NCBI GenBank assembly: GCA_964016885.1
Contig: OZ024740.1
Location: 307,644,001 to 307,708,000, forward strand
Direction: 5' to 3'
Source of the DNA: Eledone cirrhosa
Taxonomy: Eukaryota
DNA length: 64,000 nucleotides
A program made the position numbers and the translations under genes. This document shows, piece after piece, positions 2,842 to 39,035 of the stretch; position 1 is the stretch's first letter; the number at the start of each line of letters is the position of its first letter. The notes beneath the pieces were generated by a model. That model was not told the origin of the DNA. It did no database searches and was given only the letters and a program-made list of their open reading frames with translations.

Positions 2842-2958
2842 AATATGGTTTTATAAATATAGTTTCCATTTGTTAATATCGTATATATATATATATATAT
2901 ATATATATATATATATATATATATATATATATATATATATATATATATATATATATAT

Positions 2959-3035
2959 AAGGAAGGAGTTGTGGTAAGTAACCAGATGGACCATAACGCA
3001 CCAGAGTACTCAATACTTAGGCTAATAGGAGAAAG
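2959..3035 (-). mobile_element. pLTR tail fragment of a different PLE family, sister to 21420-21505
   Basis: The reverse complement ttctcctatta..aagtattgagtactctggt..ggtccatctggtt matches 21420-21500. Confidence 0.65.
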
Positions 3036-3036
3036 T

Positions 3037-3940
3037 ATGACCCTGACCTCTTCAGTGACTGGGGATTCTTTTCTTTGTTTTTGTGCCTCTCCTTTGTTCT
3101 GTCCTACGCCATCTTGTTTCTGTGTGTGTGTTGTTTGCTCAGTCTGCGCATGCGCCACATCCGGGTGTCTGTGTGTGTTTATATTCGTTTATTTATGTGT
3201 TTATTTACAGGTTGGTTGTTTGTTCTATGTGCGTGTGTGTTTTCATTTTGTCTTTAATTGTAAGTTTTGATGTTGCTGTTCCACTTATGTTTTCTATTTA
3301 ATTTTGGTTGTAATTCTTTTATGTTTATTGCCTCTGTGATTTGTCTAAACATTGCATCTTTTCTGTGTGTAGATTCTATTTTTATTTCTATGTTCTCTAA
3401 TTTACCCTTATGTTCTATTTTAGCCTGTTGGTAGAGTACAGATGATTCTTTACTATCTTGAAGGTCTCGCCAGTGTTCATTTATCCGTTCCCCTACACTA
3501 CGAGCTGTCTCACCTATGTACACTATATTTTTGTCTCTACATTGTCCCTCAGTACATCTTATGCTATATACTACATTTCTAGTTTTACAGTTAATATGGG
3601 TGCTTAATTTACAGGTTATACATTTCTTATCTATACAGGGGGTCTTTGAAATGGGTATGTATTGCTAATAAGGGTTTTACGGAGGTACCTGGTCTTTCTA
3701 CTATCTTAATATTGAGTTTATGTTTATCAATATATAAACAAGCATCTGGTTGTGGAACCAACCAACCAACCGGAAGTTTATAAATTCCTAAATTTATAAA
3801 TTTATTATAATAAATTGAAGTGAAAGCAACTGGTGCGTGTGTTTCTTATTGGCAACATGACCCTCCCAAAGTATAACAATATCGGTTTCAACAGACGTTT
3901 TCAGATAAAGAATCTTGCTAAACAAATTCAGAAACGAAAT
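3037..3940 (-). mobile_element. 5'-truncated PLE: GIY-YIG C-terminus (3254-3725), 3' UTR with half of a hammerhead, and an inverted pLTR piece (3725-3940)
   Basis: The minus frame reads IKIVERPG..DPCIDKKCITCK..CKTRNVVYSIRC..C..YIGETARSVGERINEH..FRQITEAINI..LNRKHKW. gtca-CTGAAGA-ggtca occurs at 3044-3059 (-). 3725-3940 is the reverse complement of 12622-12820. Confidence 0.85.
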
Positions 3941-4404
3941 ATATATATATATATATATATATATATATATATATATATATATATATAAGTGAATGAGGTC
4001 GAGTACTGTTGTGTATATATGTGACAGAATATATATATGAGTAGTGTATATGAATGTGTGGATTAATGTGTGTATGTGGACACTAATGTGTATATGTACG
4101 CGTGCTGGTATATATAATACGTCTTAATTTGTATTTTTTAGAGAGGAAACCAATCTACCGCATTCAGTTCGTTAATTACCAACGGTAAGGTTACGTAACC
4201 CATCCACCCATTCCCACTCCCCATACTCGTAGTTAATGTATGAGTCTGTTCTTTCCTCCTTATATCCTGCTTTATCCTTCTTTAACACACCAGATATCCC
4301 CACCTCACATTCTCTCTTCCGCAATCCATGTACTAACTGGCACGTGCTGCCATTTCCGTATAACACTGAGCGTTGTTTTCGTTTTTGTGGTGAAAGTTTC
4401 TATA

Positions 4405-5545
4405 ATGGTGCTGGTGTTGGTGGTGGTGCTGGTGTTGGTGGTGGTGCTGGTGTTGGTGGGGGTGCTGGTGTTAGTGTTGGTGCTGGTGTTGGTGGTGGTG
4501 CTGGTGTTAGTGTTGGTGCTGGTGTTAGTGTTGGTGCTGGTGTTAGTGGTGGTGCTGGTGTTAGTGTTGGTGCTGGTGTTAGTGTTGGTGCTGGTGTTAG
4601 TGGTGGTGTTGGTGGTGGTGTTGGTGGTGGTGCTGGTGGTATTGGTGTTGGTGCTGGTGGTGTTGGTGTTGGTGTTGGTGTTGGTCTTGTTGGTGCTGGT
4701 GTTAGTGTTGGTGCTGATGTTGGTGGTGGTGTTGGTGTTGGTGCTGGTGTTAGTGGTGGTGTTGGTGTTGGTGGTGGTGGTGTTGGTGTTGGTGTTGGTG
4801 TTGGTGTTGTTGGTGGTGGTGGTGTTGGTGCTGGTGTTAGTGTTGGTGGTGTTGTTGGTGTTGGTGTTGGTGTTGGTGTTGTTGGTGTTGGTGTTGGTGT
4901 TGTTGGTGTTGTTGGTGTTGGTGTTGGTGTTGTTGGTGGTGGTGGTGTTGGTGCTGGTGTTAGTGTTGGTGTTGGTGTTGTTGGTGTTGTTGGTGTTGGT
5001 GTTGGTGGTGCTGTTGGTGGTGGTGTTAGTGGTGGTGTTGGTGGTGGTGTTGGTGCTGCTGTTGGTGTTGGTGGTGGTGTTAGTGTTGGTGTTGGTGGTG
5101 GTGGTGGTGGTGGTGGTGGTGGTGTTTGCGTTTGTGTTGGGGGGGGGGGGGGGTCCGTGGGTGTTGGGGGGTCCGGGGGGCGTTGGGGGGTATGGTAGTG
5201 GGGGGGGGCTGGTGTTGGTGGTGGTGGTGGTGTTGGTGTTGGTGTTTGTGTTGGTGTTGGTGGTGGTGGTGTTGGTGTTGGTGCTGGTGGTAGTGTTGGT
5301 GTTGGTGCGGGTGTTGGTGTTGGTGTTGGTGCTGGTGTTGGTGCTGGTGGTGGTGTTGGTGTTGGTGGTGGTGTTGGTGTTGGTGCTGGTGCTGGTGTTG
5401 GTGTTGGTGGTGGTGTTGGTGTTGGTGTTGGTGTTGGTGTTGGTGGTGTTGTTGGTGGTGGTGGTGTTGGTGGTGTTGGTGTTGGTGGTGTTGTTGGTGG
5501 TGGTGGTGTTGTTGGTGGTGTTGTTGGTGGTGGTGTTGGTGTGGT
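4405..5545. repeat. (GGT/GTT/GCT)n trinucleotide-based low-complexity repeat
   Basis: About 1.1 kb of ggtgttggtgct-type triplets. It produces the spurious Gly/Val, Val/Leu and Pro/Thr ORFs. Confidence 0.9.
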
Positions 5546-37256: not shown

Positions 37257-38432
37257 ATATATACATATATATATATATACATATATATATACATATATAT
37301 ATATATACATACATATATATATACATATATATATACATATATATATACATATATATATACATATACATATATATATATGTATATATATATACATATATAT
37401 ATACATATATATATATATACATATATATATACGTATATATATATATATATATACATATATATATACGTATATATATATATACATATATATATACGTATAT
37501 ATATATATATATACGTATATATATATATATATACATATATATATACGTATATATATATATATACATATATATATACGTATATATATATATACATATATAT
37601 ATACGTATATATATATATACATATATATATACGTATATATATATATATACATATATATATACGTATACATATATATATACGTATATATATATATATACAT
37701 ATATATATACGTATACATATATATATACGTATATATATATATACATATATATATACGTATATATATATATACATATATATATACGTATATATATATATAC
37801 ATATATATATATATACATATATATATATACGTATATATATATATATACATATATATATATACGTATATATATATATATATACATATATATATATACGTAT
37901 ATATATATATATATACATATATATATACGTATATATATATATACATATATATATACGTATATATATATATATACATATATATACGTATATATATACATAT
38001 ATATATACATATATATACATATATATATACGTATATATATATATACATATATATATACATATATATATACATATATATACATATATACGTATATATATAT
38101 ATACATATATATATACATATATATACATATATATATATACATATATATATACATATATATACATATATATATATATATACATATATATACACATATATAT
38201 ATACATATATATATACATATATATATATATACATATATATATATATATACATATATATATACATATATATATACATATATATACACATATATATATACAT
38301 ATATATATACATATATATATACATATACATATATATATATACATATCTATATATATATATACATATATATATACATATATATATATATATATATATACAT
38401 ATATATATACATATATATATACATATATATAT
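37257..38432. repeat. (TA)n microsatellite with a CA/CG higher-order pattern
   Basis: Alternating ..atac.. and ..atacgt.. interruptions. Confidence 0.97.
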
Positions 38433-38433
38433 A

Positions 38434-38770
38434 GGCACATGGCTTAGTGGTTAGAGCATTGGCCTTGCAATCGAAAGGTTGTGAGTTCAATTCTCAGACC
38501 GAGTGATGTGTTGTTTCCTTGAGCAAGACACTTTATTTAACATTGCTCCAGTTTACTCAGCTGTAGAAATGAGATGATAGGGACTGGGGTCCATATCATT
38601 CCACTGCAAAGTGGCCGTGGAGGTGCCACGGCAAAAAAAGCACCCAGCACTCACTGTAAATGAGGTTGGTGTTTGGAAGGGCATCCAGCTGTAGAAATCA
38701 AGCCAGAATCAGTTCCCGTCCCACCCTTACAAGCAGGGAAAAGCGGACATAAAATGATGATGATGATGAT
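38434..38770 (+). mobile_element. tRNA-headed SINE (family S2) with RTE-like 3' end
   Basis: A-box TGGCTTAGTGG, B-box GAGTTCAATTC and body ccttgagcaagacactt. The 3' end ggttggtg..ggaagggcatccagctgtagaaa..(atg)n is shared with the RTE 3' UTR. Confidence 0.8.
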
Positions 38771-38771
38771 A

Positions 38772-39035
38772 TAATATATAAGATCAAAAGATGGTTAAAA
38801 GTGTTCTATGTATTTTATTATGCGCATTTCAAAAACAAATATCATCATGCAATAACATTTACGTTTTCGTCAGATAAAATAGGGAGACATGATATGAAGG
38901 TTAAAAAACACTTCTGAATAGTGCAGTTTTAAATCAACATATGAAAAGTAGTTTTAGATTGATGTGTTATATTGGGAAAAAATTGAGTGGGGAGGGTTGC
39001 AAAGGATGAAAAAGAGGAGGAGATGAGAGTAAAAA
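38772..39035 (-). mobile_element. Family-B PLE pLTR fragment with hammerhead (38811-38881)
   Basis: The minus strand reads tattttat CTGACGA aaacgtaaatgttatt..gatatttgttttt GAAA tgcgca TA ataaaata, homologous to 12330-12605. Confidence 0.88.

Follow-up and report, generated by a model that had tools for sequence, protein, structure and literature searches.

Twin hairpins and paired short and long ends suggest double priming on one RNA in Penelope-like elements of Eledone cirrhosa

Structured RNA can position a reverse transcriptase (RT) on an internal template, as do the boundary elements of telomerase RNA and the hepadnaviral epsilon stem-loop, and in the twin priming of LINE-1 internal priming from a second nick, on the RNA already in use, leaves an inverted 5' arm, the first start lying at the poly(A) end and the second being variable. 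Here we describe what may be a programmed form of such priming, detected in a window of 64,000 nucleotides (nt) of the Eledone cirrhosa genome (the whole stretch analyzed: assembly GCA_964016885.1, contig OZ024740.1, positions 307,644,001 to 307,708,000 of the forward strand). By their sequence motifs, the repeats that the first-pass annotation listed in this window are terminal repeats (pLTRs) of Penelope-like retroelements (PLEs), mostly of the Hydra clade. In the Hydra-type families, the 3' ends of the pLTRs fall into two classes separated by a tail, the ends lie just upstream of copies of one hairpin motif, and the two arms of an inverted insertion nearly always carry one end of each class. 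These features are probably the outcome of programmed twin priming in which two hairpins of a single RNA each provide a start.

Both the tail and internal initiation have been published for PLEs. The tail is described as an optional segment of 30 to 40 bp that accompanies an inverted pLTR (PMC3846280, PMC8557442), and the text of PMC8557442 calls its formation, together with that of the inverted repeats, an open question. A first in vitro outline came from the Poseidon element PAc of Anolis (Frangieh et al. 2024, PMC11167929), with two internal complementary-DNA (cDNA) starts that match the tail ends, cutting and extension of both strands of an AT-rich target, and an uncleaved RNA as the main template. 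The Hydra clade (Craig et al. 2021, PMC8557442) is characterized by one open reading frame (ORF) for an RT and a GIY-YIG endonuclease at the C terminus, RW[KR] and DKT motifs, a CxCX5C linker, and no CCHH motif, as well as by a hammerhead ribozyme in the pLTR, (TA)n targets, and a length generally of <3 kb. In contrast to the published descriptions of the PLE tail (PMC3846280, PMC8557442), the tail reported here measures ~55 to 165 nt, lies between two copies of one motif, and is carried by one arm, and one only, in nearly all inverted pairs. The hairpin signal and the pairing rule appear to be undescribed: a literature search found no paper on the twin hairpins, the offset, or the pairing rule, which subscription papers, Repbase entries, and figures may mention, and in PMC8557442 the word "hairpin" has no occurrence in the text and supplement, "stem-loop" has none in the supplement, and neither the offset nor the pairing rule appears to be described there.

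Two end classes and their pairing in inverted insertions

Copies were sampled from the genome (3.0 Gb and TA-rich) with anchors upstream of the ends, and each end was scored as short, long, read-through, or other. Family B (n = 116) gave 61 short, 49 long, 6 read-through, and 0 other ends; family D (n = 32) gave 22, 7, 2, and 1, respectively; and family A2 (n = 149) gave 56, 68, 17, and 8, a sample in which 30 loci had been chosen for a long end and the 8 other ends are those of diverged or sister-family copies scored against the wrong reference. Long ends accounted for 14/36 and 15/36 of those in families C and E, the rest having been binned as short or other and being mostly short by eye, and the same two-ended pattern is evident by inspection in families C, E, F, G, H, and I. 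Genome-wide, family A yielded 14,769 anchors, with 3,051 strict short joints and 2,763 continuations in the A2 form, the others being unclassified, with an anchor common to sister families. Although the A2 and B tails hold further TA-rich stretches, the interval between the two sites contains no end of a true A2 or B copy. Tail length is ~90 nt in A2 and B, 163 nt in D, 65 nt in F, and 55 to 83 nt in the distant relatives considered below; the published length of 30 to 40 bp does not hold for these elements, and the published feature of two discrete pLTR 3' ends does.

The first-pass annotation of the window had proposed that short copies terminate just before a hairpin visible in the long ones, and the sharp end classes of the per-family tallies bear this out; the ends and hairpins that it listed are present at or within a few bases of the places it gave. 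Its family A example needs emending: short ends do exist, but the 18805 copy falls in a different, sister subfamily from those at 2879 and 16325, and the copy at 2879, which ends at 2881, has a long form of its own just outside the window on the upstream side (locus L236). The hairpin that it placed at 17763 is an ACTC without a GAGYRC partner and belongs to a putatively Neptune-type family (F).

Among outward-facing pairs of arms without an internal TA run, a short end was combined with a long end in 39/39 cases in family B, 32/35 in A2, and 6/7 in D. In an independent list of family A pairs, drawn up in genome order, 63 of 67 combined a short end with an end that runs on into hairpin 1 (P = 5e-15 versus independent choice), and three of the four exceptions are mixed insertions or nesting artefacts. 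The extreme case in the window is an arm reduced to the inverted last 42 nt of a family B tail (Table 1). The one-short-one-long rule argues against the independent use of two RNAs. The earlier suggestion that the second, inverted arm carries the longer tail did not hold up; in 72 short-plus-long pairs the body of the long-tailed arm was longer in 14, shorter in 16, and about equal in 42. Fold-back pieces are found at many arm junctions.

Such fold-back pieces would also suit self-priming on an antisense template, which PMC3846280 proposed from palindromes at the inverted junctions of rotifer Penelope elements and in which the tail is optional. As the origin of the present insertions we consider it extremely unlikely, since it predicts neither a difference of exactly one tail between the outer ends of almost all pairs nor a sense-strand motif before each end.

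Arms of both end classes stop equally at one point 80 to 100 nt upstream of the hammerhead core (18/47 in A2 and 21/34 in B, in anchor-sampled sets in which very short arms are under-sampled and with bins picked after inspection). This shared stop may represent run-off at the 5' end of an uncleaved transcript, and such run-off would account for the abundance of small palindromes. A hammerhead-cleaved circular template was set aside, the stop lying at that distance upstream of the ribozyme core and not at its cut site.

Twin hairpins and the start offset

Read-through copies of five families (A2, B, D, G, and E) give the order hammerhead, hairpin 1, tail, hairpin 2, ATG: the long end halts 6 to 9 nt before a second copy of the motif of hairpin 1, and the ATG follows. 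The motif reads RCUC-stem-loop-stem-2-nt bulge-GAGY-RC, i.e., a 4-bp outer stem (RCUC with GAGY), a 3' bulge, an inner stem, and a 3' AC or GC; strict matches in the window lie at 7492, 18815, 21814, and 19448 (minus strand). The second hairpin of A2, 91 nt beyond hairpin 1, was found in 27/30 ORF-start loci and with a changed base in 1 more, the remaining two being 5'-truncated there or without the hairpin. Family B gave 238 exact read-throughs into hairpin 2 among 13,333 tail ends, and the family D read-through copies are L208 and L215. In family E, where the second hairpin and a Hydra-type ORF start are present in L429, L430, L433, and L434, the count of 4/12 loci is partly selected, since the search pattern required RCTC.

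A metagenome scan recovered 78 loci of relatives with 32 to 38% protein identity, of which the 66 with a match to the N-terminal region were examined; for 51 of them, an upstream stretch of 160 nt before the ATG was available. Within this upstream stretch, at least two hairpins were present in 24 contigs, one in 17, and none in 10, whereas any hairpin was present in only 49/2,550 shuffles and 3/51 reverse strands. To judge from these contigs, the twin motif is kept across marine animals. The hammerhead of the relatives lies 42 to 67 nt upstream of hairpin 1, and hairpin 2 lies 34 to 69 nt before the ATG. Their 3' ends fall at -12 to +1 from a hairpin in 16 of 20 scorable cases (3.0 expected), a count that leaves out 12 ends at contig borders and 3 read-throughs. 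Both hairpins are legible by eye in the published Hydra-1_Ajap consensus (PMC8557442). The 5' end of Hydra-1_Crog, in the supplement of the same paper, has a GCCC/GGGC stem, by eye a compensatory change in the otherwise invariant four pairs.

Among 71 distinct hairpins, the 2-nt bulge is UU in 50, UC in 12, and UA in 6, and the pair above it is C-G in 45 and U-A in 23, giving 68/71 Watson-Crick pairs versus a mean of 38 and a maximum of 53 in shuffles that ignore the relatedness of the sequences. By class, hairpin 1 pairs in 32/33 (shuffled mean, 17.7), and the covariation of hairpin 2 is weaker, at 36/38 (mean, 32.4). The first pair alternates between A-U and G-C among the families of the E. 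cirrhosa genome. The hairpins are thermodynamically weak (z of -0.5 to -2.0 in five window copies), and the claim of structure therefore rests on covariation.

The motif could instead be read as DNA, with the endonuclease trimming or resolving a longer cDNA intermediate at two staggered sites beside the motifs. In PMC8557442 the tail is ascribed to endonuclease-mediated resolution, PMC11167929 cites a Drosophila Penelope endonuclease that requires tail sequence for recognition, and one cut per motif would likewise yield one short and one long end. However, the covariation, confined to the sense strand, is that of a fold-back whose bulge is on one side, the common upstream stop of both arms is expected of copying off an RNA end, and the Poseidon tail ends in vitro are reverse-transcription starts (PMC11167929). 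We regard this chief alternative to programmed twin priming as unlikely.

The proposal of the first-pass annotation that the hairpin positions an internal start is supported, more strongly than the window alone allowed, by the long end lying at the same offset before the second hairpin and by distant relatives following the same rule. Joints were scored for 263 ends at six sites; with 22 variant linkers skipped, 196 of the 241 scorable ends were at a clean TA run and 45 at other joints, most of them interrupted runs and the rest other sequence. The earlier statement that ends run into (TA)n stands for most copies, but not for those at 7263, 9005, 19717, and 38775, which join only short TA stretches or other sequence. 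A stretch of 1 to 5 nt is shared with the continuation of the element at 195/196 clean joints, whereas 59/144 equally likely joints would share none, a comparison that covers many copies but only six sequence contexts. The postulated pairing with the target is supported to the extent of this short microhomology and not as the long pairing along the AU stretch that had been supposed, and the term "telomerase-like" serves as an analogy only. In an empty-site comparison aimed at the addition of TA repeats during priming, a candidate empty site was found for 3/99 insertions, all three being junctions with their own TA runs.

At 6/6 sites, the main class of joints is consistent with a start at position -7 (~7 nt 5' of the stem). 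At the A2 long end, where -7 is a G, 40 copies are joined at the U of -8 and 13 at the U of -6, and in the relatives positions -8 to -5 are strongly A/T. The offset is constant over tails of ~55 to 163 nt and over distant lineages. It would be explained by a ruler combined with a need for the last A of the primer to pair with a U, as suggested by the six contexts only.

Sharp ends and small TA microhomology would also arise if cleavage or termination of the RNA immediately 5' of each hairpin left two RNA species, both then used for conventional target priming from the 3' end, and the pLTR does have a hammerhead core. Such cleavage is quite unlikely to be the source of the two ends: the hammerhead of the relatives is too far upstream of hairpin 1 to make them, two independent RNAs would pair randomly as opposed to the 63/67 mixed pairs, and the joints move to the nearest U on either side of -7. 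It is very unlikely that the ends are set by TA-like sequence alone, with the hairpins kept for another purpose such as the binding of a packaging protein or control of ORF translation. The closeness of hairpin 2 to the ATG, the A/T richness at -8 to -5, and the motif-free tails of families F and I all agree with that account, but it leaves unexplained why no true A2 or B end lies between the two sites despite the TA-rich stretches and why the offset is kept across tail lengths and lineages.

Probable programmed twin priming and the points that weigh against it

Under programmed twin priming, the element protein would nick both strands of a (TA)n target, and the RNA hairpins would be docking sites that fix two internal reverse-transcription starts. 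One protein unit per hairpin would keep the nicked 3' end 6 to 8 nt upstream of the stem, where the last A of the primer, with up to a few more bases, would pair with a U of the RNA, and both units would copy the same RNA toward its 5' end. The two cDNAs, on opposite strands, would be joined head to head, which would leave an inverted insertion whose ends are short on one arm and long on the other; the tail would be the stretch of RNA between the two start points. A transcript starting in its own pLTR would give only palindromes of 250 to 400 bp, and ORF-bearing copies would need either a template jump or a tandem transcript that reads through into the next unit and makes use of its hairpins. 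In this scheme we infer the folding of the RNA in vivo, its binding by the protein, the presence of two units per RNA, and the transcription start.

The inverted arm would thus arise by internal priming as in LINE-1, with the difference that both starts are internal and fixed. The likeness to telomerase boundary elements and epsilon lies in a structured RNA and an internal template; the hairpin here is 3' of the start and does not mark a stop. Two internal starts at the tail ends, cutting and extension of both strands of an AT-rich target, and the use of an uncleaved RNA are described for PAc (PMC11167929) and predicted for the present elements. The starts reported for PAc lie in a single AC-rich stem-loop of the ORF, where there is no homology to the target, and do not differ between strands, whereas each start here would lie 5' of its own hairpin in the 5' untranslated region (UTR), with 1 to 5 nt of microhomology and a different site for each arm.

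Besides the limits given with the counts above (relatedness in the covariation shuffles, six contexts for microhomology, weak folding energies, and bins picked after inspection), several observations weigh against programmed twin priming. The fourth exception among the 67 family A pairs is long plus long-like (L426), and one true short-plus-short pair exists (L238). Solo arms also occur: 20 unpaired short ends were fetched, and of the 17 reported, 6 had a hidden long arm, 4 had none, 3 were in a repeated composite, and 4 were without a call. The read-through pattern of family C had no match in the genome, one family G copy (L451) ends beyond hairpin 2, and four B short ends lack microhomology, three of them among the 45 non-clean joints. 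Of the relatives, the 10/51 contigs without the motif and the 4/20 ends that miss the expected interval do not conform, and the 5' segment published for Hydra-1_Obim has no clear GAGYRC. The transcription start at the shared 5' stop is putative. Finally, families F and I have the two-ended geometry without the motif (F has no GAGYRC hairpin at either end and I has none past the short end), and the motif is therefore not required for tails in general; the tail is general to PLEs, and the hairpin signal appears specific to the Hydra clade. As a separate observation, a family A short end recurs with the same flanks in L441, L442, and L453, the three being a composite unit copied whole.

It may be, though we advance this only tentatively, that programmed double priming in the Hydra clade lies behind the tail, the inverted pLTRs, and mini-palindromes that number in the tens of thousands and that a two-site logic with clade-specific signals operates in all PLEs. 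The cis-acting signal and the pairing rule, as features that appear undescribed, make the tail a testable mechanism, to which the finding adds a small RNA signal with covariation, a prediction of the start offset, and the one-short-one-long rule, each testable with one purified protein; the E. cirrhosa genome has many intact, nearly identical element ORFs. Telomerase has the PLE RTs as its sister group, and an RNA element by which internal starts are positioned would therefore bear on the evolution of templated initiation. A portable two-hairpin signal that primes both strands would serve RNA-templated insertion tools.

Element identity and other features of the window

The elements were placed by motifs as set out in section 11 of PMC8557442. 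Many intact frames of 745 amino acids (aa) (A2) and 821 aa (B) are present at genome loci; each is a single ORF with RT motifs followed by the YVG/YFG core of the GIY-YIG endonuclease at the C terminus. The nearest named homologs are from Argonauta hians. A Pfam search gave no family for the Hydra proteins, with no match for that of A2, and assignment was by motifs: DKT is accompanied by RWR in A2, RWT in B, and RWK in D, with RWK in most homologs, and the alignment has the CxCX5C linker and the CxxC and CxH motifs and lacks CCHH, as in the Hydra clade. A Neptune label for families A, B, D, E, and G was rejected, since their motifs fit the Hydra definition. A candidate hammerhead core is seen by pattern in the pLTRs of A and B copies and of the relatives; an Rfam scan showed no hammerhead among the 150 of 481 matches listed, which were microRNA-family noise on palindromes and TA repeats only. 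The domain motifs, hammerhead, and (TA)n target agree with the published Hydra clade (PMC8557442), but the unit is longer, with a tandem period of ~3.9 kb in family B instead of <3 kb. Family F has a 775-aa frame (L416) with DKG, a CX2-5CxxC linker, and CCHH in the endonuclease, which are the features of Neptune; it is probably Neptune-type by these motifs, Nematis being also possible. It has 7,663 genome copies by pattern search (a plain DNA search gave none).

Table 1. Element-derived features of the window (positions counted from its first nucleotide)
Feature	Positions	Strand	Remarks
Decayed Hydra-type RT/GIY-YIG ORF, 3' half	204..1160	+	72-73% identical to intact 745-aa frame of L232; upstream part outside window, in L236
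Family A1 pLTR, short end	2698..2881	+	Hammerhead core 2785; own long form in L236
Family H long-end stub, inverted	2960..3028	-	Matches 21436-21502
Family C palindrome	7261..7566	.	Short arm (-), long arm (+), hairpin 1 at 7492-7513
Family D palindrome	9001..9332	.	Short arm (-), long arm (+), long-looped hairpin 1 at 9177-9252 (GCTC..GAGCAC)
Family B long-end stub, last 42 nt of tail	11200..11242	-	100% match to 21854-21895; partner arm of 11243-12603
Family B 5'-truncated copy	11243..12603	+	GIY-YIG end, 3' UTR, hammerhead core 12504, short end
Family G pLTR, long end	15120..15631	+	Hairpin 1 partly deleted; second hairpin in read-through copy L225
Family A1 pLTR, short end	16142..16335	+	Hammerhead core 16230
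Family F palindrome, putatively Neptune-type	17706..18067	.	65-nt tail, no RCTC/GAGYRC hairpin
Family A2 3' UTR and pLTR, long end	18172..18896	+	5' stop hotspot near 18610-18630, hammerhead core 18709
Hairpin 1, family A2	18815..18836	+	ACTC, inner stem, 2-nt bulge, GAGT-GC
Family E palindrome	19373..19717	.	Long arm (-) with hairpin 1 at 19448-19416, short arm (+)
Family H palindrome (absent from first-pass annotation)	21311..21505	.	Short arm (-), long arm (+), mutated hairpin 1
Family B palindrome	21551..21897	.	Short arm (-), long arm (+), hairpin 1 at 21814-21840
Family B pLTR, short end	38775..38984	-	Hammerhead core 38873

Further observations concern the neighborhood of these features. 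Family I, two-ended with a tail of ~60 nt and without a Hydra hairpin past the short end, is represented at 3790-3940, 12624-12800, and 13087-13168. The hammerhead-like cores of families D (9105-9115) and F (17950-17975) resemble by eye the U3-A8 variant of PMC4209133. At 18040-18171, the 26 nt after (TA)43 are an inverted copy of the preceding sequence and are joined to the A2 body, which could reflect fold-back priming of the TA run onto its flank. Nested inverted flank pairs surround TA runs at 41722-42155, 39098-39223 with 42189-42314, 17515-17636 with 19231-19352, and 20372-21296, and the elements appear to insert repeatedly into one another's TA tails. Degenerate (TA)n arrays are very long, up to 4.4 kb (23918-28275, 32437-33322, and 16322-17350). 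ORF fragments of other non-long-terminal-repeat retrotransposons lie at 9368-10715, 28587-29210 (-), 36360-37230 (-), and 42435-42823, and a repeat of ~185 bp that resembles a short interspersed element is present in many copies (5725-5912, 6686-6878, 19824-20009, 33429-33574, 43159-43269, 46234-46543, and 47846-48038).

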